Position numbers and translations under genes: made by a program. From Candidatus Hydrogenedentota bacterium (GTDB lineage: Bacteria; Hydrogenedentota; Hydrogenedentia; Hydrogenedentales; SLHB01): a stretch of DNA of 64,000 nt. Positions 9,423-62,818 of the stretch are shown here, piece after piece (the stretch's first letter is position 1; the number at the start of each line of letters is the position of its first letter). The stretch is from positions 13,517 to 77,516 of the forward strand of contig JAWXCN010000032.1 in assembly GCA_034408725.1 (NCBI GenBank). The letters run 5' to 3'. The notes under the pieces are model-generated. The model was not told where the DNA came from. It saw only the letters and a program-made list of their open reading frames with translations, and made no database searches.

Positions 9423-10799
9423 ATGAGCACACACGAATCGAATGCCACGGCTACGAACAATTCCACTACGCGGCGGTCATTTCTTCGTTCGTCCGTCATT
9501 GCCGCGGGCGCAGCGTTGGGCGCGCCCGCCATTGTACGGGGACAGAACCTAAACAGCCTCCTGAACATTGCGGTCATCGGCTGCGGCGGACGTGGTGGCA
9601 GTAACCTCCAGGAAGTCTCGTCCGAGAACATCGTGGCCCTTTGCGACGTAAACGGAAACAATCTCGACAGCGCCGCGGCGAAATTTCCGAAGGCCGCCAA
9701 GTTCACCGATTTTCGCAAACTGTACGACAAACCTGATCTGTTCGACGCGGTCGTCGTCAGCACCAGCGAACATACCCACGCGTTTGCGACGTTGCCCGCG
9801 TTGCACGAGGGCAAACACGTGTATTGTGAAAAACCGCTTACCCACAATATCTGGGAAGCCCGCATCATTCGCGAGGCCGCGGGGAAGGTGAAGGTCGCGA
9901 CGCAAATGGGGACGCAGATTCACGCGGGCGACAACTACCGTCGCGTGGTCGAGTTGATTCAGTCTGGCGCCATCGGCCCCGTGCGCGAAGTCCATGTTTG
10001 GGTTTCCCGCACGTGGGGATGGCAGGCGACGGAGGAGGAATCCAAAGCCGCGCAGGATATCGTGTTCACCAACGAACGGCCCAGCACGGCCGATCCGGTT
10101 CCCGAAGGGCTTGATTGGGATCTTTGGTTGGGACCCGCCCCCGAGCGGCCGTTCAGCAACGTGTACTTTCCGGGACCCAAATGGTATCGCTGGTGGGAGT
10201 GGGGCAACGGAACCATGTCCGACTTGGGCAGCCATTGGAATGATCTGCCTTTTTGGGCGCTGAATCTTAAACATCCAGTTACTGTCGACGCAGGCGGACC
10301 CGCTGTCCACCCGGACATCGCGCCCGCTTCCATGTGGGCCGCATATGAGTATGGCGCGCGCGGTGACATGCCTGCCCTCAAACTGACCTGGTATCAAGGC
10401 AAAGAAAAGCCCGCGCGTTGGACCGATGGCACAATTCCAAAATGGGACGATGGCGTGCTTTTCGTCGGTGACAAAGGAATGCTGCTTTCCGACTACAGCA
10501 AATACGCGCTGCTGCCCGAAGACCAATTCAAGGGATTCACGCCACCACCGCAGACGATTCCCGCGTCATTGGGACATCACAAGGAATGGCTCCACGCCTG
10601 CAAGACTGGCGAGCCGACGACGTGTAATTTCGAGTATGCGGGTTGGCTCACGGAGGCCAACCACTTGGGCAACGTGGCCTATCGAACCGGTAAGAAGCTT
10701 GAATGGGATGCAGTGAAACTGAAGGCCACGAATGCCCCTGAGGCCGACCAATACATCAAACGCATCTATCGCAAACCGTTCGTCTTTGACGCCAATTAA
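9423..10799 (+). CDS. TAT-signal Gfo/Idh/MocA family oxidoreductase
   Basis: Lies within ORF 9336..10799. The ATG at 9423 gives MSTHES...[25 protein letters not shown], a twin-arginine signal. It has the Rossmann motif [15 protein letters not shown] and the EKPL motif ([10 protein letters not shown]). Confidence 0.85.
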
Positions 10800-10838
10800 G
10801 TTGCACGTAGACTCTTTGTTCGAGTAAAGTACCTGCCC

Positions 10839-11411
10839 ATGGGGCGCCACACGGTTCAATTTAGTTGTCATCACTGCAACCATTGCTGTACGGAAGTGAT
10901 TTGCCTTCCGACGCCGTGGGACGTAATCCGTATTGCGCGGGATACGGGTCAAGACCCGTACAAGTTTCTCGACTTCGTCACTCCTGAAGACATTGACGAA
11001 GTCGACGAATTTGATCCGACTTGGTTATACGTCGGCGACCAGCGCTATATGATGGCGCTGCGCCGCTACGACCATGGCTGCCACTTCCTCGACAAGAAGA
11101 CGAAGTTCTGCACGATTTACGAATCGCGCCCGATCCTTTGCCGGTTGTATCCGTTCAAAGTAACAGAGTTCCGCGATGGAACTTTCAAAGGGTTCACGTT
11201 GCACGATGACGTAGGGTGTCCACGGCACCGGGACGGTTCAACGCCGGTAAAGCCACTATATGAACTATATATGCAGGACACTGAGCACCAGGAAGATTAC
11301 GAGTCGCTTGTCAAGGTATTCAATCAAAAGGACCATGCATCGAAAAAGCCCGAGGACTTCATAGGGATGTTTATCGTCAAAGACGTCGTGGCCGGCGCAG
11401 TGCGGGTTTGA
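10839..11411 (+). CDS. YkgJ-family cysteine-cluster protein (UPF0153)
   Basis: CHHCNHCC (CxxCxxCC) near the N-terminus and the second cluster FCTIYESRPILCRLYPF. Confidence 0.75.
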   Translation: MGRHTVQFSCHHCNHCCTEVICLPTPWDVIRIARDTGQDPYKFLDFVTPEDIDEVDEFDPTWLYVGDQRYMMALRRYDHGCHFLDKKTKFCTIYESRPILCRLYPFKVTEFRDGTFKGFTLHDDVGCPRHRDGSTPVKPLYELYMQDTEHQEDYESLVKVFNQKDHASKKPEDFIGMFIVKDVVAGAVRV

Positions 11412-11496
11412 TTGGATTTTGTGATTCTACACGACCCGGCCGTTTGCGTAAAATGAACAGAATCAGCACTTTATGAATGTATTCGCGTATTTTCGT

Positions 11497-11525
11497 TTGA
11501 CTTCACCCCTACCCCGTGCTATACT
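11497..11525 (+). promoter_or_regulatory. Near-consensus sigma-70 promoter TTGACT-17 nt-TATACT
   Basis: TTGACT at 11497-11502, a 17-nt spacer, and TATACT at 11520-11525. It lies about 130 nt upstream of the M23 peptidase ATG (11657). This is a sequence match only. Confidence 0.5.
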
Positions 11526-11656
11526 CCGCAAACTTGGTGGGAATCCCTAGGGTGGTATTCGGGGATTACAGACAGCGGGATTAGCCATTTGACTGTAACG
11601 GAATGCTGTGTGGCCCTTGTCCCCTGCGTTGTTGTGATGAGCTCGGAGCACTTTTA

Positions 11657-12688
11657 ATGAAGCGCTGGACGGTTATGCTCATTCCCCATGGGCAGGGGAA
11701 TACCAGAAGCCTGAATCTTTACTCGATGCAGTTATACGTCTTGGTATCGGCGTTTGCCGTACTGGCGTTTACCGCAGCCTACACCTATCAATCCGCCCGA
11801 ATCGCAAGCAAGGACGTGGAGCGGCTCGAACGCGAGAAACGCGCGCTTGGAGCGATGGCGGCCCCGCTAACGCAGCACCCCACGGCAATTTTAGCCGATG
11901 ACGAACGCCTGACCATAGAGCAAAAAGTGCGCGAGGAATACGAAGGGCGCATGGTCGCGATTACCAGCGAGCTAAGCGAGCTCTATGACGTCGAGAAGAA
12001 CTTCCGCAAGAACAACGGGTTACCGCCGCGCACGAAGACCCCGGCGGAATTTGTTGAGAATGTCAGCGCGGAACAGGGTGGAAAAGGTGGACCTCCCGGG
12101 TCCGATCCGGGGGACGACGCGCCATTGGCAAATGATGCGCTGGTACGGCCACCATCGGTGATCGATGGGCTGGCGAATCCGAGCGCGGACCTCATCGTTC
12201 AGGAAATCAACATCCGCACGGAGAGCCTGCGGGAATACAACGAGTTGTACCTCGCGGCAAGCCAGGCCAAGAAAGAAGAAATTGATCGCACGCCGGGCAT
12301 TTGGCCGGTCTCCCGCACGAAACGATCAATAGTCACATCACGGTTTGGACACCGCAAGGACCCATTCACACGGGACCTTAGTTTCCATGACGGGCTCGAT
12401 ATCGGCGCGCCGTATGGCACTTCGATTATTGCAACGGGCAAGGGGACCGTTATATCCTCGGGCTGGGACAAGTACCTTGGGAACCATGTCCGCATCGATC
12501 TTGGGGCGGGTATGGTCACGGTATACGGACATATGCAGAAAACGACGGTATCAGTTGGCGAACTCGTCGAGAAGGGCACGGAAGTTGGAAAGCTCGGCAG
12601 CACGGGACGCAGCACGGGCGCGCATTTACATTACGAAGTTCGAATCAACGGCAAGTCGGTGGACCCTGAACGCTACCTTGTCGAATAA
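11657..12688 (+). CDS. M23 family metallopeptidase (LytM-type), membrane anchored
   Basis: Lies within ORF 11603..12688, with the ATG at 11657 (MKRWTVMLIPHGQG). It has a TM helix and a coiled-coil-like linker. The HxxxD motif is FHDGLDIGAPYG and the HxH motif is GSTGRSTGAHLHYEV. Confidence 0.88.
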   Translation: MKRWTVMLIPHGQGNTRSLNLYSMQLYVLVSAFAVLAFTAAYTYQSARIASKDVERLEREKRALGAMAAPLTQHPTAILADDERLTIEQKVREEYEGRMVAITSELSELYDVEKNFRKNNGLPPRTKTPAEFVENVSAEQGGKGGPPGSDPGDDAPLANDALVRPPSVIDGLANPSADLIVQEINIRTESLREYNELYLAASQAKKEEIDRTPGIWPVSRTKRSIVTSRFGHRKDPFTRDLSFHDGLDIGAPYGTSIIATGKGTVISSGWDKYLGNHVRIDLGAGMVTVYGHMQKTTVSVGELVEKGTEVGKLGSTGRSTGAHLHYEVRINGKSVDPERYLVE

Positions 12689-12697
12689 GAAGCAGGC

Positions 12698-13153
12698 ATG
12701 TTAGACGCAGCAAAAAAACGAGTATACGGTGATACCAAAGTGGTAACAGTCATTGGGCAAGGCACAACAATCATCGGCGAAATCAAGTCGAAGGGCACTA
12801 TCCGCGTCGAGGGCGTGGTGTCTGGCCGAATCCACAGTGAGGATTCGATTGTCGTTCAGGAAACTGGGCGAGTGAAGGCCGATCTGTATGCCGGCCAGGT
12901 GACGATTGCAGGAGAAGTGGAAGGCAATATCTTCGCGCAGGACCGCCTCGAGATCGCGACGAACGGCAAGCTGCTCGGCGACATCGTCGCGCCGCGCGTG
13001 AGCATTGCCGAAGGCGTCCTTTTCGAAGGCAAGTGTACGATGAAGCCGCCCAACGCTACGGCCCCGCAACGCGTCACCGAAGATGGCGTGCAACAGGCCG
13101 CGCCACAGCGCCAGCCGCAGACGCCGCCCCAGGAGCCCTCGCAGCGCACGTAA
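12698..13153 (+). CDS. Bactofilin (polymer-forming cytoskeletal protein, DUF583)
   Basis: Repetitive beta-helix pattern IIGEIKSKGTIRVEGVVSGRIHSEDSIVVQETGRVKADLYAGQVTIAGEVEGNIFAQDRLEI, followed by a Pro/Gln-rich tail. Confidence 0.88.
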   Translation: MLDAAKKRVYGDTKVVTVIGQGTTIIGEIKSKGTIRVEGVVSGRIHSEDSIVVQETGRVKADLYAGQVTIAGEVEGNIFAQDRLEIATNGKLLGDIVAPRVSIAEGVLFEGKCTMKPPNATAPQRVTEDGVQQAAPQRQPQTPPQEPSQRT

Positions 13154-13181
13154 TCATTTCTCAAAATCGTGTAAAATATGG

Positions 13182-13212
13182 GGGCGGCCAACGATGGCCG
13201 TCCTATTTTTTT
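13182..13212 (+). terminator. Rho-independent terminator candidate
   Basis: An 8-bp stem (13182-13189 pairing with 13196-13203, one G-U pair) with a 6-nt loop, then TATTTTTTT (a T7 run at 13206-13212). It lies 29 nt after the bactofilin stop. It also argues for the mnmA start at 13218 rather than 13194. Confidence 0.6.
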
Positions 13213-13217
13213 GTGCT

Positions 13218-14324
13218 ATGACAAATTCAAAACAAACAAATTCAAAGTCCCAGCGCCGCGTGCTTGTCGCGATGTCCGGCGGAGTGGACAGCTCTGTCGC
13301 CGCGGCCTTGCTCGTCGAGCAGGGCTACGACGTCGTGGGCATGACCATGCGCGTTGCGTCCGGCGAAGGCCGTGAGGTGTCGGACAAAGCCTGTTGCACA
13401 CTGGATGCCGCACAGGATGCGCGCCGGGTCGCCGACAAACTGGGCATTCCGCACTACGTTATCAATTACGTGCAGCGGTTCGAGCAGGAGGTCATTCAGG
13501 ACTTCATCGGCGAATACCTCGCGGGCCGCACGCCGAACCCGTGCTCGCGGTGTAATCAGCGCGTGAAGTTTGGCGCGCTGTACGAGAAGGCGCTCGCCAT
13601 TGAAGCGGACGCAATCGCCACGGGACATTACGCACGGCTTGAGCGGCGCGGCGATCGTGTCGCGCTGCTTCGCCCCGTGGACAAGAACAAGGACCAAAGT
13701 TACACGCTTTCCGGTTTGGGCCAGGCGCAACTCGAACGCGCAATGTTCCCCTTGGGCGAAATGTCGAAGGAGCAGACGCGCACAATTGCGCGATCGTTGG
13801 GTCTCGTTACCGCGGACAAACCGGAGAGCATGGAAATTTGCTTTGTGCCGGGCGACGATTATCGCCGGTTTCTGGCGACGCGCGTGCAGGCTCCCACCGC
13901 GGGCCCCATCGTGAACTTGCAGGGAGAACTGGTTGGCCATCATTCCGGCTTGGTGAACTATACCGTGGGTCAGCGAAAGGGCCTCGGCATTGCCGCGGCC
14001 AAGCCGTATTACGTCGTGAAACTCGACATGCAGCGCAACGCATTGGTCGTCGGGCATGATGATGAAGCAACCGTGGGCGGATTGGCAGCAAGTCAGGTGA
14101 GTTGGTGCGCGCTTCCGCCGCAAACTGATCCCTTCGATTGCTTCGTGCAGATTCGGTACAAGAGCGCGCCCATTCCATGTACGGTGACGCCAGGCGCGGA
14201 TGGTTTTTCCGTCGCGTTCCACGTCCCGCAACGCGCTGTCTCTCCTGGGCAATGGGCGGTGCTCTACGACGGGGACACCGTGCTGGCGGCGGGGATTATT
14301 GATCGGCCCGAGGTCGGCGGGTAG
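13218..14324 (+). CDS. mnmA: tRNA 2-thiouridine(34) synthase
   Basis: Lies within ORF 13083..14324. It has the PP-loop RVLVAMSGGVDSSVAAALL, and the motifs CCTLDAAQDARRVADKLGIPHYV and NPCSRCNQRVKF. The ATG at 13218 (MTNSKQ) was chosen. Confidence 0.92.
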   Translation: MTNSKQTNSKSQRRVLVAMSGGVDSSVAAALLVEQGYDVVGMTMRVASGEGREVSDKACCTLDAAQDARRVADKLGIPHYVINYVQRFEQEVIQDFIGEYLAGRTPNPCSRCNQRVKFGALYEKALAIEADAIATGHYARLERRGDRVALLRPVDKNKDQSYTLSGLGQAQLERAMFPLGEMSKEQTRTIARSLGLVTADKPESMEICFVPGDDYRRFLATRVQAPTAGPIVNLQGELVGHHSGLVNYTVGQRKGLGIAAAKPYYVVKLDMQRNALVVGHDDEATVGGLAASQVSWCALPPQTDPFDCFVQIRYKSAPIPCTVTPGADGFSVAFHVPQRAVSPGQWAVLYDGDTVLAAGIIDRPEVGG

Positions 14325-54242: not shown

Positions 54243-55310
54243 TTACCATGAGTCTGGAAATGTTACGTAATATCCCGAAATACGGCCACCTTCCGTACGA
54301 ATCTCGTAATCAATAATTAACCTTACTTTTCCGGCTACCTGTACACTGCAAGGGTAACTCCCATCCAATATGGCGCTGCCATCGGCCATGTATTGATAGC
54401 AATTTCCCTTCGAATCCAAATCCCAACTGACAAACGTGGGATCACTCGTTTTCACGGCACTCACCGACACCATCCGCTGATCGCTATAGACCAGCGTCGG
54501 CGTGTTGCCGTGCCAGCTCAATTGTGGTGGTGACGGAAAACGCTGGCTTTGAACATTGGTTTTTTGCGGTATTGACCACGTTTTGCCGCGGTCCTTGCTT
54601 TCGGTTACCCAGAAATAACCATCGGACTGCGGGATATTGTTCCGCGAGATTCCAATGATATGTTTTGACTCAAGTTCGAGGGCATCCCACTCGTCCCCGA
54701 CGAATCCGTCGGTATCGGGGATTGCGAATGATTCCCAGTTCCGACCGTTGTTGTACGAGAGCGCGGCGATCGCGCCGTTGCCGGGGGCCTTGTACAGTGG
54801 TAACAAGACGTCGCCGTTAGAAAGTACGACGCCGGCAGAGCGCGTGCGCGTATTCGGCACGCCGACGGACTGTGGCGCGGACCACGTTTTTCCGCCATCA
54901 CCGGATCGGGCGGTCATCGCCAGGGACACCTCGTCTCTGGTATACGAATTATAGGAGAGGAGCAATTCGCCGTTCGGCAGTTCGACAATGGCGACGTTAC
55001 GATCATCGACACCGGGCTCATCGACAATTACGCTGGCAGATGACCATGTGCGGCCCTTGTCCGAACTCGTTGCAAGCATGACGCGCCCTTCAGCGGAGAA
55101 CATGTGTTCGGTGCCTTCGCGCCACACGCAATACAACGTGCCGCTGGCTCCGGCGGTGATCCACGGCCAACCCGGGTACTTGCCTTCGTAGATGATGACG
55201 TCGGGTTTTGTGCGCTGGAACGCATCAGTCGATACCTGCGCGAAACTGCCCGCGCCGATGCCCGCCATTCCCGCCGCGGTCAATGCCAGAAAACGTCGTC
55301 GTGTGTGCAT
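54243..55310 (-). CDS. BNR-repeat exo-alpha-sialidase-like protein with TAT signal
   Basis: Lies within ORF 54243..55388, with the ATG at 55310 (MHTRRRFLALTAAGMAGIGAGSFA). There are three Asp-boxes: SSDKGRTWS, SGDGGKTWS and SKDRGKTWS. Confidence 0.82.
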   Translation of the reverse strand: MHTRRRFLALTAAGMAGIGAGSFAQVSTDAFQRTKPDVIIYEGKYPGWPWITAGASGTLYCVWREGTEHMFSAEGRVMLATSSDKGRTWSSASVIVDEPGVDDRNVAIVELPNGELLLSYNSYTRDEVSLAMTARSGDGGKTWSAPQSVGVPNTRTRSAGVVLSNGDVLLPLYKAPGNGAIAALSYNNGRNWESFAIPDTDGFVGDEWDALELESKHIIGISRNNIPQSDGYFWVTESKDRGKTWSIPQKTNVQSQRFPSPPQLSWHGNTPTLVYSDQRMVSVSAVKTSDPTFVSWDLDSKGNCYQYMADGSAILDGSYPCSVQVAGKVRLIIDYEIRTEGGRISGYYVTFPDSW

Positions 55311-55398
55311 TACGCCCTCTCCCGATTTCAGTGAGGGAACATTATACCCAATGGTACCGCAGGCATTTAGTAGCGCCGCAATTGCCAAGGGCGGCGGG

Positions 55399-55424
55399 TG
55401 TAGCGCTGAATTCCGATTCGGCGC
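55399..55424 (-). repeat. 26-nt repeat, inverted copy
   Basis: TGTAGCGCTGAATTCCGATTCGGCGC is the exact reverse complement of 55837-55862 and 56372-56397. Confidence 0.9.
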
Positions 55425-55661: not shown

Positions 55662-55703
55662 GGAAATTAATTTAAGGGGTATTTATGGATTTGCGTAGAA
55701 TGG
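55662..55703 (+). repeat. 42-nt AT-rich conserved intergenic block, copy 2
   Basis: GGAAATTAATTTAAGGGGTATTTATGGATTTGCGTAGAATGG matches 4289-4330 at 36 of 42 positions. Confidence 0.7.
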
Positions 55704-55738
55704 ACTGACACGGACTGATATGGACAGACACGGACAAA
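55699..55738 (+). repeat. Period-10 array of NGGAC units x4
   Basis: ATGGACTGAC ACGGACTGAT ATGGACAGAC ACGGACAAAA, with GGAC at 55702, 55712, 55722 and 55732. Confidence 0.75.
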
Positions 55739-55836: not shown

Positions 55837-55862
55837 GCGCCGAATCGGAATTCAGCGCTACA
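55837..55862 (+). repeat. 26-nt repeat, direct copy 1
   Basis: GCGCCGAATCGGAATTCAGCGCTACA. The 28-nt version TGCGCCGAATCGGAATTCAGCGCTACAT is identical to 56371-56398. Confidence 0.9.
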
Positions 55863-55919: not shown

Positions 55920-56138
55920 ATGGACGTTGTCATACCGCTCGACAAAATGTCGGTCGCAGAAAAATTGCGCGCAATGGAAGAGTCCTGGGACGACCTTCAA
56001 CGCGGATCGGGCGAGGTACCCTCGCCTGCCTGGCATGAAGACATTCTCCGCGCTCGAGAAAACCGCGTCAACGAAGGTGTGTCCAATTATGCTGACTGGT
56101 CCGAAGCAAAAGATAGGATTCCTCGTCAGACCCAATGA
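55920..56138 (+). CDS. Putative addiction-module antitoxin component (TIGR02574-like)
   Basis: Lies within ORF 55866..56138. The ATG at 55920 is 10 nt after AGGAGG. MDVVIPLDKMSVAEKLRAMEESWDDLQR...PAWHEDILRARENRVNEG...WSEAKDRI fits the family pattern. Confidence 0.65.
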   Translation: MDVVIPLDKMSVAEKLRAMEESWDDLQRGSGEVPSPAWHEDILRARENRVNEGVSNYADWSEAKDRIPRQTQ

Positions 56139-56371: not shown

Positions 56372-56397
56372 GCGCCGAATCGGAATTCAGCGCTACA
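56372..56397 (+). repeat. 26-nt repeat, direct copy 2
   Basis: GCGCCGAATCGGAATTCAGCGCTACA, identical to 55837-55862. Confidence 0.9.
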
Positions 56398-56529
56398 TCA
56401 GTGGGATTGGAGATTATTTGAAGCGGAATTTATGAGTTCGTGCAAAATTGATGAACATAAATGGAAGAGGAGTGCACCTAGCAGGGTGGAAACAGAAGTA
56501 ATAAAGTTTTCCAGAGAGCTTTTGCGTTT

Positions 56530-57591
56530 TTACATTTCTCGGTTGGCAAAACTTATCTCGAAAAATTTATCCAAGTCAAGCCGATAAACCCGTCTGCAGC
56601 CACTTGTGTATTGTTCGGGATGTGCGAACTCACGCGGTGTGGGATAGGCAATAGTAATGTCGTCCATAAATGCGCGAAAAATACCCACTGCAACAGCCTG
56701 CATTTTACTGCCGGTGGGCGCTACTATAATTCGCTCAAATTCGCCGTGCGCGTTGTATATATTTGAAAGGTTATCAATGGTCTCACCGTATTCCAATGTG
56801 CTGGCATAAAAATCCTCTCTCGACGCCAAAGAATTCGTGTTATTCAATTCTTGAATCGCCTTTAATCGCCATATATTTTCCTCCGCTGGAGGAATTCCAT
56901 GAATCAAAGTAATTGCTGATGGCTGAGTTTCATTTCTTAGTGCTGATAGTTGATCAACATTGAAAGAGGGGAAAAATACTAATCTCGTTGGTTGTCCTTG
57001 AAGTGCGACGGACGACAATTCCGGTATAATGGCAACTTCAATCACGCCCTTTGACAGAAATAATATATCATAGGGATTATACCCCCTGTCGGCAATTCTT
57101 CTGGCAACCTCTTTTTGATCAGGCGGGTACTTTTCTGCTTCGGTATAGATAACAGTGCAATTGCTAAAGCCCATCGAATGCTTACCGACAGCCGCTAAAA
57201 TCTGAACAATGAGCAATTTCGACATTGCAGATATATCAATGAATAAACGCCCTTTGCCGGACCTGATACTTTCAAGAAGTTCTTCGCCGAACCACGCTGG
57301 ATCTTCTCTATCGTAGACTCCTGACATATTATTTACGGCACGGTTATCCGCAAAGAGTTCTATCTCTGCAGATCTATTTTGAACCAGACTGGGAGAGTAA
57401 ATGATTTTAAACACCGTGATATCGTTTGGGCACTTCGTCGCGACCAAACTTGGTACATAGTGAGCTCGATCCTCAAATCCGGCGCAATAGACAAGCTCGT
57501 CGCCTGGCTCAAGAGCCAAGTCAGCAATAGAAGTGAGGCGGGGCTTGTCAACCTGGCAAAGCAACTGGTCGATTCTGAGGACAGTATGCAT
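56530..57591 (-). CDS. Island gene C: 353-aa protein of unknown function, tandem Rossmann-like alpha/beta segments
   Basis: The ATG (57591-57589) directly abuts the TAA stop of gene B (57594-57592). There are strand-then-polar signatures GRLFIDISAMSKLL (aa 114-127) and ERIIVAPTGSKMQAVAVG (aa 286-303). No PD-(D/E)xK, HNH, PLD, TIR or SIR2 motif was recognised. GC is low. Confidence 0.75.
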   Translation of the reverse strand: MHTVLRIDQLLCQVDKPRLTSIADLALEPGDELVYCAGFEDRAHYVPSLVATKCPNDITVFKIIYSPSLVQNRSAEIELFADNRAVNNMSGVYDREDPAWFGEELLESIRSGKGRLFIDISAMSKLLIVQILAAVGKHSMGFSNCTVIYTEAEKYPPDQKEVARRIADRGYNPYDILFLSKGVIEVAIIPELSSVALQGQPTRLVFFPSFNVDQLSALRNETQPSAITLIHGIPPAEENIWRLKAIQELNNTNSLASREDFYASTLEYGETIDNLSNIYNAHGEFERIIVAPTGSKMQAVAVGIFRAFMDDITIAYPTPREFAHPEQYTSGCRRVYRLDLDKFFEISFANREM

Positions 57592-60090
57592 TTATATATC
57601 CTCTTCTTTAGTATCAGTAAACTCCAATTGCACGTCATCGGTGCCCATCCGAACGGATGGCCCATACTCCGAAAAAGGTTTGCGAAGGCGATAGGCATCC
57701 TCAAATTTATTTGGATTGAGTAAAAGGCCTTCAATTTCGCTTGGTTCTAACTCAACCGAATCTCTCCGACTAAACGTGAGGCCAAAATGTGGAAGTAAGC
57801 ATCGACGCAAATACAAGCGGGGAACCACTTTGCCGCGTCGACTTTTTCCACGCGGATCTTCAATGAATAAAGAATATCGAAGCAACTCTCTATAAACGCT
57901 CAACGCCTCTTTTCCTAAATTTAAATCCTCATATGGTTCGATTCGAGATGCCAAATAGGGTGGCGATGAACTTTCATTCTTGCTGTCCCGAAACTTAAGA
58001 TAGGAAAAGGCGACAACTGCGAACGCGGTCACGACATGAACTAAATGCTCGCCGTTGCTAGTGCCGCGCAAACCCTGCAAAAAACTCCCAGCTTCAGAGC
58101 GAATTGCATCGGCTTGTATCTCCTTCCGAAGTTTCGGTACTGCTGGCGATGTTTTAAGGGCAGACGCTCCTCCGGCGTCCTCGATCATGCGGCCAACCAG
58201 TCCAATCAGATAGAAAACATCTCCGCTACACAATTCAGAAAGTGAATGTCGGCCCCAAACGTTAAGTTTTTTGTCGTTTCTGATGGCACGTGCTATATCG
58301 TTGTAGCTCCTTGAGTCTGACTCTCCTAGAAGCTCTAATAGAGTTTTAACAGGATATCCTTCGACGGCACCAAATCTTCTTGCAAACACATCTTCAATAA
58401 AAGCCAATTTTTCGTCTGGCTTAGCATGCAGAAAAACAAGACCCAAGTTTAATAGCTGAAACTCACGTCCTTCAACGTATGATTTCCCGTCGATATCGGA
58501 ACGCGCGTACGAAACGGGGCTTTCAGTAGAAAGTTTAAAAAAACAACATGATGTTCGCTGCATAAATAGTCTGTTAAGATTCTTTTGCAAATCGAGGGTG
58601 ATCTTGGGCATCGAGTAATCATCAACAAAGAAATAAAATGGGCGGTTATCAAGGCTCGGAAACTGCCTTAGAATCGCAGCGCACACAGTAGGCAAGATAT
58701 CTGGACCCCAAAGGCCTTCCATTGGGTGGTCATAGGTAAATCTATGTTTTAATCTAGCGCGTTTACGCTGCTTTGCCATAGCAAACTTTAGCGCTTCGAA
58801 AGTATTGCCACTTGGTTCAGTTATCGGATTTAGCTCAAGAAGTTTCAACAAATCGGAAGTCAGCTTTGATTCCAATTCCCGGAATTGGTCGGGAAAACTG
58901 ACACTGGTCCATTGTTCAATTGTTTCCAATACCTGTGAAATCAGAGTGGCCGATATGAAGTGCATGGGTAAATCTATCGCTTCGGTTCTCGAAGGTATTT
59001 CGTAACGTGGAAATGTTCCGTACAAGTCATCGCATCGATAGTAAATGCCAATATACGGAATGGTCGACAAATACTCGTCGCTTACCAATAATCGGTGCTG
59101 TAAGCTAAGACTCTTGAAGACAGTTGTCTTTCCACAGCCTCTAGGTCCAGTTAGTACCAAATTATTCCTATCTTCGATTTGGGTGACGCCTAGAAATTTG
59201 TTCGAATAAAGGGATCGCAATAGGCCATGGGAATCTCCTATTTGTTCACAACTCAAATAGTCGAACGGACTCGATAGGGAAACTTTCGTTTTTACCTGAG
59301 CCTCGCGGTGAAACGCCGTTGGGATATCTAGGAGTTTATGGTAAAGACCTTCGGGATTGCGGGCCAATTGATCGCGCGTGCGATCCCTTTCAGTCAAATG
59401 CCGAGCCAGAAAATGCGTATTTAGGACGTTATAGGTGTATCTTTCGAGTGGACTACAGTCTTGATAGTTAATATTTGCAAGGAGTTCCTGTAAGATGAGA
59501 GCCGTCTGATCATAATCGTCGCGGGCTTGGGACTCGCTCGTTGCTGATGTTACACCAAAGTCTGTTACGCGTATTCGATAATCCGGACCACCGAGTTGGC
59601 CAGTGCAATCTTCTACGAGAACATTCCCAGCGTGTATATCACCATGCCGAACGTGCATTTGTTCCATGTTGTGGAGCAACGCGAACATTGCCTTTAAAAA
59701 GTCCTCTATGAAGCCAACGCGGATCTGGTGCAGATGCTGTTTAATATACTCGCGTAGATCGATGCCTGGAATATATTCAAAGAAAAGAAGAACACAATCT
59801 ATATCGTTTGCTTCATCGAGCCAGGCCGTCATGGTTTGGAATCGTACCGCCACTGGCGTACTTAAGATGGCAACTTTTCGTATTTCGTCGAGCCATTGCG
59901 ATTCTTGAGCATTGACAAGGTTCACACGAGGAATTATTTTGCAAGCGACGGTATGTGAAGTGTTGGTGGCGAACGCTTCAAACATTAGTCCATTTAGTCC
60001 ACTTTTAATCAACCGTACAATTTTATAGTCGTCGCGACCCGGTATCGTGTGTTGTAGAAAAAATTCCGGTTTTGGAAGATTGCGTTTCAT
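57592..60090 (-). CDS. Island gene B: protein-kinase-like domain fused to P-loop NTPase with long C-terminal region
   Basis: 832 aa. Kinase-like core: GLNGLMFEA...HTVACKI (Lys51), HGDIHAGN (59623-59646) and DFG (59554-59562). Walker A is GPRGCGKT (59125-59148). Walker B-like is FYFFVDD (58618-58638). About 340 further residues carry no motif I recognise. The start overlaps the gene A stop (ATGA 60087-60090). Confidence 0.85.
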   Translation of the reverse strand: MKRNLPKPEFFLQHTIPGRDDYKIVRLIKSGLNGLMFEAFATNTSHTVACKIIPRVNLVNAQESQWLDEIRKVAILSTPVAVRFQTMTAWLDEANDIDCVLLFFEYIPGIDLREYIKQHLHQIRVGFIEDFLKAMFALLHNMEQMHVRHGDIHAGNVLVEDCTGQLGGPDYRIRVTDFGVTSATSESQARDDYDQTALILQELLANINYQDCSPLERYTYNVLNTHFLARHLTERDRTRDQLARNPEGLYHKLLDIPTAFHREAQVKTKVSLSSPFDYLSCEQIGDSHGLLRSLYSNKFLGVTQIEDRNNLVLTGPRGCGKTTVFKSLSLQHRLLVSDEYLSTIPYIGIYYRCDDLYGTFPRYEIPSRTEAIDLPMHFISATLISQVLETIEQWTSVSFPDQFRELESKLTSDLLKLLELNPITEPSGNTFEALKFAMAKQRKRARLKHRFTYDHPMEGLWGPDILPTVCAAILRQFPSLDNRPFYFFVDDYSMPKITLDLQKNLNRLFMQRTSCCFFKLSTESPVSYARSDIDGKSYVEGREFQLLNLGLVFLHAKPDEKLAFIEDVFARRFGAVEGYPVKTLLELLGESDSRSYNDIARAIRNDKKLNVWGRHSLSELCSGDVFYLIGLVGRMIEDAGGASALKTSPAVPKLRKEIQADAIRSEAGSFLQGLRGTSNGEHLVHVVTAFAVVAFSYLKFRDSKNESSSPPYLASRIEPYEDLNLGKEALSVYRELLRYSLFIEDPRGKSRRGKVVPRLYLRRCLLPHFGLTFSRRDSVELEPSEIEGLLLNPNKFEDAYRLRKPFSEYGPSVRMGTDDVQLEFTDTKEEDI

Positions 60091-61370
60091 TTTTTCTTAA
60101 GAACCAATATTCGTTCTTGGCGCGTACCTGCGCAGTCTTTTCTGGAGCGGCGTATGTCGGGGATGTTGTCAAGGAACGAATGCTGCAAAGTTAACGAAGG
60201 CGCGAATTGTGCGAAAATGGCAAGCGTTATGTCGCTTGGATGTAATGTACCTCTTCGAGTGACGGTTTCCCCAACAATAAGAACACAGTGTCCATTGGAA
60301 ACCAAACCTCTTTCTGCACACGCAGCTAACTTTTGAATCGCCTTGCGAAAATCGTCTTCGTTCCGGGTCATACTATTATCTGTAACGGTCTCGGCATCTT
60401 GTGTCAAGAACCATAGGCGCAGGCGATTATCTCGGACATAATCCAGCGCATTCATATAAGGCGGACTACTCACGATGCAGTCAAAACTCTGCGGGAAGGC
60501 CAAGGCGCGTATCTCGCTGCGGCGAATCGTCCATTTTGGTATTTGTCGTGGAAGTTTCATTCGTTTATAAGCGCGAGTGATCTTTGCATGCATCCGCGGC
60601 ACGATTTCGCGATACTCGTACAAGTCGGGATGTTGTTCGCGGGGAAATCTTACGTTGCGAAGGTATGGTACGAGATGACTGCTCGGGTATGATAAAAAAC
60701 CTGGCCTTTGGTGGTGCAGGATGCCGAGCAAGCAAGCTAGTGTGAAATGGTCTCGCTTTTTCCTGCAAACTGTCGCAAGCCGAATCGCACTCTTAAGGGT
60801 ACGCGGGTGAAAGAAACGCCGCACCCAGATGGGAACTTGTCGTAAATCTGGTTCCGGAAGGAGTAATGATTCGCTATAAGCACAATCGAAATTTAGAATC
60901 GCCGATTGAAGATTTATAGGAGCTGCTAGCTTGGCGCAGGTAAGTACGGTCGCATATTGGCTTACGTCCGATGCGAATATACGCCGTCCAAGTCGTATAG
61001 CTTCAAGTGGTATGGTTCCCGCGCCGCAAAACGGATCGACGATGAGATTTCCATTTTTCGTATACCTGGAAATTAGGTCCGAAGCAATGGAACTTTTGAG
61101 TTTTCCTATGTATGGGGATAGTTGATGCAAGGTGCATTCTGAATTTGCACATGAGTCGCTCCAATGGCGCGGAGCCAATTTAGTCTCTGATTGACGGGGT
61201 TCAGATTGTGTTTTTAACGGCTTTTTTTTCTCGTATATCTGCGCAGTGCCAATTGTTGCCGTTGCTTGGTTGTATTTCATACGCATGCTTTTCATTATAA
61301 CCCCCAATAAGTTAACACATGAGGTAAGCCCTTCGCGAGGTCGGCCGTTAAAATGAATAACCTTGTGCAA
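60087..61370 (-). CDS. Island gene A: SAM-dependent DNA amino-methyltransferase (SPPY catalytic motif, motif I upstream of motif IV)
   Basis: Motif X/I is LHQLSPYIGKLKSSIASDLISRYTKNGNLIVDPFCGAGTIPLEAIRLGRRIFASD (VDPFCGAGT at 61014-61040). Motif IV is FDCIVSSPPY (SPPY at 60456-60467). An alternative start is at 61295 (MKSMRMKY), 7 nt after GGGGG. Confidence 0.82.
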   Translation of the reverse strand: MHKVIHFNGRPREGLTSCVNLLGVIMKSMRMKYNQATATIGTAQIYEKKKPLKTQSEPRQSETKLAPRHWSDSCANSECTLHQLSPYIGKLKSSIASDLISRYTKNGNLIVDPFCGAGTIPLEAIRLGRRIFASDVSQYATVLTCAKLAAPINLQSAILNFDCAYSESLLLPEPDLRQVPIWVRRFFHPRTLKSAIRLATVCRKKRDHFTLACLLGILHHQRPGFLSYPSSHLVPYLRNVRFPREQHPDLYEYREIVPRMHAKITRAYKRMKLPRQIPKWTIRRSEIRALAFPQSFDCIVSSPPYMNALDYVRDNRLRLWFLTQDAETVTDNSMTRNEDDFRKAIQKLAACAERGLVSNGHCVLIVGETVTRRGTLHPSDITLAIFAQFAPSLTLQHSFLDNIPDIRRSRKDCAGTRQERILVLKKK

Positions 61371-62059
61371 CGCCCCGGGCTATTCTGTAGAGGCATTCAA
61401 CAATGAACACTACAGACACCCGACCACTTGACGCCCGAGCCATCGCCGATCCCTTGTCCCTCCCGACGCATCTCCGGGAGCAGTTCGAGCGCCTGCGCGC
61501 CGATCGTGGGCCCAATGCGGACAGCGGGACGCCGTCTGTCCGTTGCACGCCCCTCGGCACACCCTGCTCCCGGTTGTGGGATGAGGTTCGGCGCGTGTGC
61601 GATCCTCCATTATGGCCATCCGCACCAATCGACTGAAACGGCACAACCAGAATCACACGCCGACACTTGGCCACCCCCTTGCACCCCAGCACCCAGGCTC
61701 CCTGTCCATTGCTTCAACCTCCGAGTGCTAACCTCAATTCAATCTTCGACTTGCCCGGAATACCGCACGACGCTCATGCTCGTGGCGGGACGCTACACCC
61801 CCCCTTGTATCGTCAAAAAAAGTTTTGTACACCCCCTCAAACCCTCTTGACCTCCGCAATCCGTCGCGCTTCACGCTGCCGTGTACTGCAACAGACTGGG
61901 CGAATGAGTAAAGGCGCATAGCCAATCACGAGCAACGGCTGGTCGCCATTTACATGATTCGCTATTTTCCAGCATAACCCTTGATCGATTACGATTACGC
62001 CCGCGCGCGGGGGTATAACGCGCACACGAAGCGGAAGGTTAGCCAGGGGAAAAGCAAAA

Positions 62060-62818
62060 ATGAATCCTGCGAAAGTTGTCGGCATTATTCCATCACGATT
62101 TGGTTCTTCCCGGTTGCCGGGAAAGCCGTTAAAACCAATTCGAGGTAAACCGATGATCCAGCGCGTTTATGAGCGCGCGAAGCTTGCGCGGCACCTGGCG
62201 CAGGTCACCATCGCTACCGACGATGAGCGCATCGCGCGCGTGGTGGAAGCATTCGGCGGTACATACGTGATGACGTCGCCGGACCATCCGAGCGGCACGG
62301 ATCGCCTCGCGGAGGCCCTTGACCAGATTGACGCGGCTATCGTCGTCAACATTCAGGGGGACCAGCCGTTTCTGGACCCGATGATGATCGAGGAGGCGGT
62401 GCAACCCTTGCTAGACGACCCTGGCCTGAACATGTCTACCCTGATGCACCCCATCGCGCGCGAGGAAGATTTGATCGATCCAGCAGTTGTAAAGGTCGTG
62501 ACAAATTTGAAAGGCGATGCGCTGTATTTCTCGCGGTCACTAATCCCATATCCCCGGCAGGACGCCGGGCAACGGGTTTATGAACACGTGGGCTTGTACG
62601 TGTATCGCGCGGAGTTCCTGCGCAGGATTGCGGCGTTGCCGCCTACACCGCTAGAGTTGACGGAGTCGCTTGAGCAATTGCGTGTGCTCGAGCACGGGTA
62701 TTCGATTCGCGTGATCGAAACCAAGGTGCATGACAACGCGTTCAGCGGTTTCAGCGTGGACACCGAACAGGACCTCATGCGCGCCGAAGAAATGCTGATC
62801 GAGCGGGGAATGGAATAA
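62060..62818 (+). CDS. kdsB: 3-deoxy-manno-octulosonate cytidylyltransferase (CMP-KDO synthetase)
   Basis: VGIIPSRFGSSRLPGKPL, IATDDERI, SGTDRLAEA and NIQGDQPF. Confidence 0.93.
   Translation: MNPAKVVGIIPSRFGSSRLPGKPLKPIRGKPMIQRVYERAKLARHLAQVTIATDDERIARVVEAFGGTYVMTSPDHPSGTDRLAEALDQIDAAIVVNIQGDQPFLDPMMIEEAVQPLLDDPGLNMSTLMHPIAREEDLIDPAVVKVVTNLKGDALYFSRSLIPYPRQDAGQRVYEHVGLYVYRAEFLRRIAALPPTPLELTESLEQLRVLEHGYSIRVIETKVHDNAFSGFSVDTEQDLMRAEEMLIERGME

Follow-up and report, generated by a model that had tools for sequence, protein, structure and literature searches.

The window analysed here is a stretch of 64 kb from the Candidatus Hydrogenedentota contig JAWXCN010000032.1, and its minus strand carries three consecutive open reading frames (ORFs), in the order A-B-C in the ORF listing of the window, that are the subject of this report (coordinates are window positions). 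Their predicted products are a DNA amino-methyltransferase, a protein-kinase-like domain fused to an ORC-CDC6-like AAA+ ATPase, and a protein of the CARF superfamily. The three genes travel and evolve together as a compact, horizontally mobile unit that usually lies among restriction and defence genes and is a strong candidate for an anti-phage system, and the triad is a split, abundant, methyltransferase-linked form of a catalogued, uncharacterised family of kinase-AAA+-CARF proteins. Arguing from sequence and from analogy with known systems, we give a probability of roughly one in two to the reading that the triad is a self-contained, horizontally mobile module acting against phages or other mobile genetic elements, in which a DNA mark is coupled to a kinase output.

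Three genes inherited as one unit

Gene A (60087-61295, minus strand) encodes 402 aa from an ATG at 61295, gene B (57592-60090, minus strand) encodes 832 aa and gene C (56530-57591, minus strand) encodes 353 aa. The stop codon of gene A overlaps the start of gene B in an ATGA (60087-60090, minus strand), and the stop of gene B directly abuts the start of gene C in a TAAATG (57589-57594, minus strand). These junctions read as an earlier note on this DNA had described them, with no intergenic space between the three genes, and the same packing recurs elsewhere: at both A-B and B-C the modal gap is -4 to +3 nt in 70 loci.

Homologues of gene B number more than 785 and are of the same length, with ~45-55% identity; those of gene C number more than 866, again of constant length and ~45-55% identical, and an exhaustive profile search recovers 1108 representative relatives of gene C. 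Among 185,579 species-representative genomes there are 108 matches, from which 80 loci were kept, ~75 of them testable. The order A-B-C is found in every testable locus, in four metagenomic contexts and in these species loci, with the exception of one (L034, considered below), so that the linkage of B and C to each other and to a methyltransferase holds essentially throughout. It is also kept around distant gene C homologues, and in a second clade whose kinase/ORC-CDC6 proteins are ~900 aa long and are named 'ORC-CDC6 family AAA ATPase' by NCBI. Pairwise identity matrices of the three proteins are correlated, with a Mantel r of 0.90 for B-C, 0.76 for A-B and 0.78 for A-C, and 0 of 999 permutations gave a value as high.

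The carriers are spread over Acidobacteriota, Verrucomicrobiota, Nitrospirota, Myxococcota, Pseudomonadota, Planctomycetota, Omnitrophota, Chloroflexota, Actinomycetota, Clostridia, Spirochaetia and Bacteroidota, together with one metagenome-assembled genome (MAG) labelled as an archaeon. An identical copy of gene C is annotated in a Candidatus Hydrogenedentes MAG. Across these phyla the catalytic residues of the methyltransferase, the kinase and the ATPase are invariant, which argues that all three activities are under selection.

Predicted activities of the three products

By its motifs, gene A is a DNA amino-methyltransferase related to the beta-class N4-cytosine and N6-adenine enzymes, in permuted form, and its substrate is most likely DNA, modified to N4-methylcytosine or N6-methyladenine. 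A TTG start at 61370, proposed earlier, adds 25 unconserved residues (427 versus 402 aa); the ATG at 61295 is the most likely start instead, because it is preceded, at a distance of 5 nt, by a GGGGG run (61301-61305) and because the alignment with homologues begins only at residue ~60-66 of the 427-aa form. Motif I, the predicted S-adenosylmethionine-binding loop DPFCGAGT (61014-61037, minus strand; aa 87-94 of the 402-aa form), is preceded by an HQLSPYIGKLK block; its F, G and G are invariant in 40 homologues, and alignments pair it with motif I of TTHA0409 and with that of an N4-cytosine methyltransferase. The predicted catalytic motif IV, SPPY (60456-60467, minus strand; aa 277-280), lies ~190 residues after motif I, is invariant (as SSPPY) in 40-73 homologues and aligns to the TSPPY of the DNA cytosine-N4 methyltransferase 8s9n. 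The SPPY form is more typical of N4-cytosine enzymes.

Both beta-class hallmarks are therefore present in gene A, motif I (FxGxG) and the catalytic (S/D/N)PP(Y/F), in the order I...IV and not in the order IV, target-recognition domain, I of PF01555. A 40-sequence profile of gene A matches TTHA0409 (2e-8), 8s9n, 8s9m, M.MboIIA, M.RsrI and DpnA in the PDB, and its two halves align to the beta-class enzymes there in swapped order, which upholds the description of the enzyme as permuted. In Pfam only the S-adenosylmethionine-binding end of N6_N4_Mtase and UPF0020 are matched, and in PADLOC the type II methyltransferase models (MTase_II) reach 6e-20; profiles of RNA methyltransferases (Trm14 and related) match several orders of magnitude more weakly than those of DNA methyltransferases. 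The top NCBIfam score over the motif I region belongs to the DUF1156 anti-phage model. The variable stretches of the protein are residues 141-180, 261-300 and 321-400, and it contains an invariant 23-residue insert, LGILHHQRPGFLSYPSSHLVPYL.

Gene B opens with a protein-kinase-like domain (59281-60036, minus strand; ~aa 19-270) whose fold, to judge from profiles and model, is complete and whose catalytic residues are intact, and we predict that it is a kinase. Pfam Pkinase matches at 5.5e-13, PDB profile matches include PknB, ULK1 and DAPK, and the AlphaFold model of the protein (predicted local distance difference test, pLDDT, 78) matches PknB, WNK and GAK over 240-290 columns with a Foldseek probability of 1.00, in a run on the whole protein whose matches are dominated by kinases. 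The marks of Hanks-type kinases are all found: the beta3 lysine (K51), the alphaC glutamate (E69), the HxD...N loop (H149-G-D151-x-H-x-x-N156) and the DFG (D177-F-G). Judged, as for gene A, across 36-73 homologues, there is no variation at K51, H149, D151, N156, D177 or F178 and little at E69 and G179 (at least 90% conserved).

An ORC-CDC6-like AAA+ module (57745-59187, minus strand; ~aa 302-782) follows, comprising nearly the whole of Pfam PF24389. Profile positions 26-318 of 571 match with an E-value of 8.5e-39, and positions 415-571 match the C-terminal piece scanned alone (2.1e-08); the ~340-aa C-terminal region, once considered a possible separate sensor, is thus the rest of PF24389. The Walker A motif G-P-R-G-C-G-K321-T-T (from G315; 59122-59148, minus strand), with an arginine inside the P-loop, and the Walker B residues D490-D491 in FFVDDYS (58618-58623, minus strand) are invariant. 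A PDB profile search with the ATPase part gave P-loop-level or chance matches only, with no close solved structure. Towards the end of the protein the segment DPRGKSRRGKVVPRLYLRR (57802-57858, minus strand), the best conserved of the C-terminal part, is a predicted basic strand-turn-strand with invariant R, G, K, S, R, G and R, and aa 741-780 have the lowest column entropy of the C-terminal half (0.69-0.70). This hairpin may be a nucleic-acid-binding wing, in a part of the model where pLDDT is below 50. Pfam gives no Zn-ribbon match in gene B, whose kinase begins at about residue 19, and neither gene B nor gene C has a nuclease, Res or HsdR match in Pfam, PADLOC or NCBIfam.

The motifs that the earlier note had picked out in genes A and B are accordingly real, being invariant or nearly so, and Pfam, PADLOC, PDB profiles and Foldseek agree on the methyltransferase, the kinase and the P-loop. 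Its view of gene C needs revision: the protein is Rossmann-like, as described, and belongs to a known superfamily.

Profiles and model place gene C in the CARF superfamily. It has no Pfam or NCBIfam match, and its profile finds chance-level matches only among PDB sequences; the PADLOC CARF6 models ('CARF6--CARF_CARF_CARF') match aa 30-344 with a best value of 5.8e-21, and positions 877-1179 of the 1187-position model 'CARF6--CARF_STK_AAA' match at 9e-7. Distant relatives of gene C give weak matches to Pfam CARF_Card1 over domain 2. The AlphaFold model (pLDDT 85, predicted template modelling score 0.90) has two tandem beta-alpha-beta Rossmann-like domains, and Foldseek matches it with a probability of 0.99-1.00 to the CARF domains of Card1 (6wxw), Csa3 (6w11/2wte), Csm6 (8jbb), Sis0455 (7z55) and Cam1 (8t66), among which Sis0455 is a ring nuclease. 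Looser whole-length matches are to folds like those of tandem universal stress proteins, and comparison with viral structures returned generic Rossmann folds only.

A CARF signature, [DN]x[ST]xxx[RK], with the basic residue directly after strand 4, is given in PMC4012209. Gene C carries it directly after strand 4 of domain 1 as D119-I-S121-A-M-S-K125 (57217-57237, minus strand), where the D, S, M and S are invariant and the K/R nearly so. A P-T-G-S-K296 loop (56704-56718, minus strand) follows a strand of domain 2, with invariant P, G, S, K and Q, and is a candidate for a second ligand-contact motif. Strand 1 is followed by an invariant G-F-E-x-R, which is polar and acidic, where the CARF description has a polar S/T at the end of the strand. 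In the model the protein stops right after the second Rossmann-like domain, and no winged helix-turn-helix (wHTH) is seen. Gene C is a putative ligand sensor, a role proposed because of the signature, the fold and the presence of a C-like domain at the input position of a histidine kinase: in P0366 (670 aa; L089/L090), at loci with an otherwise normal triad, the C-like domain has a histidine kinase (HisKA plus HATPase_c) fused C-terminally.

Other variants of the three genes were also seen. A C-like domain is fused at its C-terminus to a calcineurin-like phosphoesterase in P0322 (724 aa; L086), on a short contig. A 1366-aa 'A' in L052 was considered as a fusion and rejected as an over-extended ORF. 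The only plasmid copy found is that of Bradyrhizobium quebecense pBq66S1MBc (L093, NZ_CP088025.1 69538-75559), a second-clade locus. The strain is in culture; a gene annotated as a restriction endonuclease stands two genes upstream of the locus, and a recombinase gene is close by. Here the kinase-ATPase gene is split into 246 and 652 aa, and we rejected the idea that kinase and ATPase were still separate in an ancestral four-gene arrangement: the split is a recent frameshift, because the 97%-identical B. monzae orthologue is a single protein of 898 aa, the two parts add up to that length, and identity breaks at about residue 229.

The island and its neighbours

The operon lies in a low-GC island (56400-61400 in the composition profile), with a GC content of 0.45-0.48 over 56-61 kb against ~0.54-0.61 in the flanks; the host Hydrogenedentes genome has ~57% GC. 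A family scan of the flanking genes identifies a BNR-repeat gene at 54243-55388 on one side and, on the other, a cytidylyltransferase gene at 62060-62818, which we take to be KdsB-like. The ~650 bp between the gene A start and the cytidylyltransferase gene (61400-62060) are of intermediate GC (0.53) and contain only short overlapping ORFs, none with a family match; this segment presumably holds the operon promoter and the upstream junction of the island. Scans for promoters and terminators gave matches at chance level, and no tRNA genes, Rfam families or CRISPR arrays are found at the island borders or elsewhere in the window.

Within ~1 kb downstream of gene C an exact 26-nt repeat, GCGCCGAATCGGAATTCAGCGCTACA, occurs three times, at 55399-55424 (minus strand), 55837-55862 (plus strand) and 56372-56397 (plus strand), where 0 copies are expected by chance; the 64-kb window has no further copies. 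Two copies are direct and one is inverted, and together they flank a small ORF (55921-56138). All three lie downstream of the operon and do not bracket it, contrary to the repeat-bounded junction that had been proposed; the repeat may be an element like repetitive extragenic palindromes or miniature inverted-repeat transposable elements, or a scar of the island border. The small ORF (plus strand, 71 aa) has an AGGAGG upstream and leads through an overlapping ATGA at 56135 into a short second ORF. We took the first to be antitoxin-like and the second to be a truncated RelE/ParE start, a label that profile scans do not confirm, and the toxin-antitoxin remnant of the earlier note finds no support here: neither Pfam nor NCBIfam gives a credible match. 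Between the BNR-repeat gene and the small ORF there is also an intergenic tandem repeat (55700-55735), with ~3.6 copies of a 10-nt unit, ATGGACTGAC / ACGGACTGAT / ATGGACAGAC / ACGGAC.

At other loci restriction-type and mobile-element genes predominate among the neighbours, and together with the low GC here they bear out the defence-island-like setting suggested previously. Among 122 proteins within two genes of the triad at 31 loci, the most frequent families are ResIII (9), DEAD (6), Helicase_C (6), SNF2 (4), N6_N4_Mtase (3) and DUF1156 (3), followed by NERD, NOV_C, UvrD and rve_3; HsdR and integrase or recombinase genes are also present, and PADLOC matches among the neighbours include REase_III, DrmD, ZorD, BrxH-like helicases and HmaA/B. 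Further contexts contain MmeI-like restriction-modification genes, PD-(D/E)xK, DUF4365, PIN toxin-antitoxin, ImmA/IrrE-HTH and ArdC genes and serine recombinases. Clustering of flanking ORFs yields three recurrent neighbours of restriction type: a large DNA methylase (9 loci); a ~850-aa ResIII helicase resembling type III Res (6 loci: L041, L050, L071, L074, L077 and L083), most of whose loci also carry the large methylase; and a DUF1156 methyltransferase (6 loci: L044, L047, L066, L068, L080 and L084), often with an SNF2-NOV_C helicase, a pair that we take to be the BREX-related DUF1156/DUF499 system. The triad is thus repeatedly nested in other restriction-type systems, at 12 loci, some of which probably share one transferred island. 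No fourth gene or neighbour family is constant across loci.

The recurrent neighbour closest to a fourth gene is a subfamily of ThyX (flavin-dependent thymidylate synthase, Pfam Thy1), which abuts the triad on the same strand at 8 loci. Its members, which come from Myxococcota, Acidobacteriota and Alphaproteobacteria, share 56-70% identity (the L058 copy 47-50%), lie upstream of A or downstream of C, and are present in both second-clade loci examined. The copies are at L003 5685-6668, L015 1348-2244, L017 7840-8733, L039 1362-2273, L073 7737-8612, L058 14659-15450, L093 9905-10828 and L094 10828-11784; the window has none. ThyX looks like an optional fourth gene.

The nested loci bear on the strongest of the alternatives, that the triad is an accessory or regulatory module. 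Gene C would then sense a nucleotide signal made elsewhere in the cell, by type III CRISPR, CBASS or another system, or the triad would plug into adjacent restriction systems that have a helicase-nuclease and a methyltransferase, and the gene B kinase would modulate these or the physiology of the host. That 12 of ~75 loci stand directly beside a DUF1156 methyltransferase with SNF2-NOV_C, or beside a ResIII helicase with a large DNA methylase, speaks for this, as does the best NCBIfam score of the gene A motif I region. So does the lack of a signal synthase in the triad, since CARF domains normally answer cyclic oligoadenylates made by Cas10 (PMC4012209). Most loci, however, lack such a partner nearby, the window among them with its BNR-repeat and cytidylyltransferase flanks and no CRISPR array; no neighbour family is constant; and the triad brings its own methyltransferase and is transferred as a unit. 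We regard an accessory role as unlikely.

Proposed function and comparison with known systems

The reading that we prefer, a self-contained module in which a DNA mark and a kinase output are linked, draws on the GC dip, the patchy distribution over many phyla, the restriction and recombinase neighbours and the 12 nested loci. Gene A would methylate host DNA at N4-cytosine or N6-adenine and so mark it as self. The gene B protein would bind nucleic acid through its ORC/Cdc6-like ATPase and basic C-terminal hairpin and act as an ATP-driven switch, turning on its N-terminal kinase upon foreign unmarked DNA or an infection cue, and the kinase would phosphorylate host or phage targets such that infection is stopped. 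A similar action by phosphorylation is presumed for single-gene kinases such as Stk2 and PD-T4-6 and for PglW in the Pgl system. The gene C protein would bind that of gene B and gate it by a nucleotide-derived ligand, as CARF domains gate the effectors to which they are fused; this step is suggested by analogy. In relatives C and the B architecture form one polypeptide, and in one variant of the triad C is joined to a histidine kinase.

A bolder version, which we advance tentatively, makes the triad an autonomous immune system. Its CARF sensor, with no dedicated cyclase, would read a nucleotide or nucleic-acid cue derived from infection and, jointly with an ORC/Cdc6-type DNA-binding ATPase able to tell DNA that carries the mark of gene A, would turn on a kinase whose action aborts the infection; ThyX would be an optional addition to the three genes.

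Several observations weigh against a self-marking defence module. The 23-residue insert of gene A is invariant and the protein has no clearly hypervariable target-recognition domain, which is unusual for a self-marking enzyme, whose specificity is expected to diversify; its likeness to DNA methyltransferases is mostly the S-adenosylmethionine-binding block, and the RNA-methyltransferase families UPF0020 and Trm14 also score. In gene B the catalytic loop is HGDIHAGN, where a His replaces the Lys of protein kinases (HRDxKxxN), and in the model only ~12 residues separate the DFG from the next helix, with no activation loop ending in APE. Such a loop and such a short segment after the DFG resemble atypical kinases. 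Because the usual Lys is lacking and the segment is short, it is possible that the kinase acts on a non-protein substrate. The triad has no nuclease or other classical effector, and neither it nor its recurrent neighbours include a cyclase or another enzyme that would make a CARF ligand. The neighbour counts are raw counts, with no matched control. Viral contigs yielded no relatives. Finally, L034 (a Pirellulaceae MAG, 9998-13512) has an intact B (824 aa) and C (347 aa) and no A: a gap of ~770 bp occupies the expected position, and no A homologue lies within 10 kb upstream. It is the sole A-less case among the testable loci, and it argues against a strict need for A beside B and C.

The first of these points would also suit a signalling or epigenetic module with no part in defence, in which gene A methylates a fixed substrate (RNA, a single regulatory DNA motif, or a protein, for instance B or C) and the kinase/ATPase and the CARF sensor control host physiology. 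A conserved insert with no obvious hypervariable recognition domain suggests such a constant substrate, the UPF0020 and Trm14 matches would allow it to be RNA, and the fusion of C to a histidine kinase and the dedicated ThyX at some loci fit a regulatory role. Yet the best relatives of gene A are DNA methyltransferases by several orders of magnitude, the neighbours are mostly restriction-type and mobile-element genes, and a rare, patchy distribution over many phyla with a composition foreign to the host is atypical of core regulation; we consider this improbable. Least probable of all is a selfish, toxin-antitoxin-like addiction module, in which B, alone or together with C, would be toxic as long as its target is not modified by A, and which would persist by post-segregational killing: tight translational coupling with the putative protective enzyme encoded first, mobility on islands or beside recombinases, and the toxin/antitoxin-like description of Pgl with its methyltransferase, kinase and ATPase activities (PMC4365076) all suit it, but at L034 B and C are intact with no A next to them and the B. 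quebecense frameshift leaves A and C intact, the opposite of what selection upon antidote loss would give, and addiction and defence are in any case not mutually exclusive, as in restriction-modification systems.

If the triad is a working defence system of the kind that we favour, it would be a widespread immune module, with at least 108 matches in species-representative genomes, many phyla and more than 1000 protein clusters. What is understood of CARF sensors so far concerns almost entirely the reception of cyclic oligoadenylates from Cas10; were this reading true, they could also work cyclase-free, linked to methylation and with a protein-kinase output, and in the autonomous version three genes would suffice to bring together epigenetic self-marking, CARF signalling and phospho-signalling. 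The triad would also be a compact three-gene model for the way in which a methyltransferase cooperates with a kinase and an ORC/Cdc6-type ATPase to distinguish self from non-self when no nuclease is involved, a question that stands equally for BREX, Pgl and MADS. Its presence in the cultured carriers Citreicoccus inhibens M34, Ferriphaselus sp. R-1, Bradyrhizobium monzae and B. quebecense makes it directly testable.

Like BREX type 2/Pgl, the triad pairs a DNA methyltransferase with a Ser/Thr kinase and with an AAA+ ATPase of the ORC/Cdc6 clade, has no classical restriction endonuclease and is presumed to mark self by methylation (PMC12839542; PMC4365076). It is nevertheless distinct from that system and from standard restriction-modification, as the earlier note had held. 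PglZ, BrxD and BrxHI are present in BREX and not in the triad, and PglZ has no match in A, B or C (Pfam, PADLOC, NCBIfam), nor is it among the window flanks or the recurrent neighbours. The Pgl methyltransferase is PglX-type, whereas gene A is a permuted relative of PF01555/UPF0020; the BREX ATPase BrxC/PglY has ~1200 aa, whereas that of gene B is a ~480-aa PF24389 module fused to a kinase. PglW is described with NERD nuclease and pseudokinase parts (PMC12839542), which the gene B kinase lacks, and no PglW model is among the PADLOC matches shown. Nor do the PADLOC and NCBIfam matches listed include one at the level of PglW, BrxC, PglY or PglZ, a BrxL P-loop match at 1.8e-4 being the nearest, and the CARF protein has no BREX counterpart. 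From restriction-modification systems of types I-III the triad differs in having no endonuclease or helicase-nuclease subunit, such genes being only variable neighbours at other loci.

MADS (mad1-mad8) likewise combines a methyltransferase, a kinase and an ATPase, and PADLOC matches mad6 to the gene B kinase (2.7e-15), mad2 to gene A (1.1e-6) and mad8 to the P-loop (2.8e-3). The likeness is at the domain level only, gene B scoring 21 bits against a cut-off of 460 for the NCBIfam MAD6 equivalog NF047741, and MADS has eight genes whereas the triad has three and no other mad genes. The single-gene anti-phage Ser/Thr kinases PD-T4-6 and Stk2 use a Hanks-type fold as a defence effector, as gene B would, and PADLOC PD-T4-6 models match aa ~20-190 of gene B (up to 3.8e-12), in the kinase N-lobe and catalytic core only; these kinases stand alone, without the ORC-CDC6-like ATPase, methyltransferase and CARF partners of the triad. 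Gene C resembles the CARF effectors of type III CRISPR (Csm6/Csx1, Card1/Can2, Cam1, Cad1, Csa3) in its fold and in the signature that follows strand 4, and in both cases a CARF domain is paired with an enzymatic output. Unlike them, the triad is not linked to Cas10 or a cyclic-oligoadenylate synthase, its kinase/ATPase output is on a separate polypeptide, and gene C consists of two tandem Rossmann-like domains. Membership of a named system (MADS, PD-T4-6, Mokosh, BrxL or DUF1156) was rejected, since the PADLOC and NCBIfam matches are at the domain level only.

The earlier note had called the system undescribed, and this stands in part. The A-B-C operon, a name for it, its methyltransferase linkage, the split form, its abundance and experimental work on it were not found in the literature searched, a search that did not extend to the 2020 CARF census, which probably defines 'CARF6'; a BREX-diversity paper, the 2025 update of the CRISPR-Cas classification and two CARF reviews do not mention the operon. 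The claim does not hold for the domain combination, which is known in fused form. Makarova et al. 2014 describe a 'small' family of proteins in which a Zn ribbon, a Ser/Thr/Tyr kinase, an AAA+ domain with an Arg in its P-loop, a CARF domain and a wHTH are fused (PMC4012209), and this fused kinase-AAA+-CARF family (PADLOC PDLC01925, 'CARF6--CARF_STK_AAA') is the closest known entity to the triad. The kinase, the AAA+ domain with its P-loop arginine (GPRGCGKT) and the CARF domain occur in both, in the same order, and gene B matches PDLC01925 at 1.1e-24, with aa 12-649 aligned to positions 34-672 of 1187. The functional link between B and C is supported by these collinear matches of the two proteins to one PADLOC model and by the fused family itself. 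Against the fused family, the CARF protein of the triad is encoded by a separate, translationally coupled gene; no Zn ribbon is seen at the gene B N-terminus and no wHTH after the gene C CARF domains, gene B ending instead in a wing-like basic hairpin; and the triad has an obligatory methyltransferase partner, which the available part of PMC4012209 does not mention. The family called 'small' there thus has an abundant split counterpart, with more than 785 B homologues, more than 866 C homologues and 1108 C clusters.

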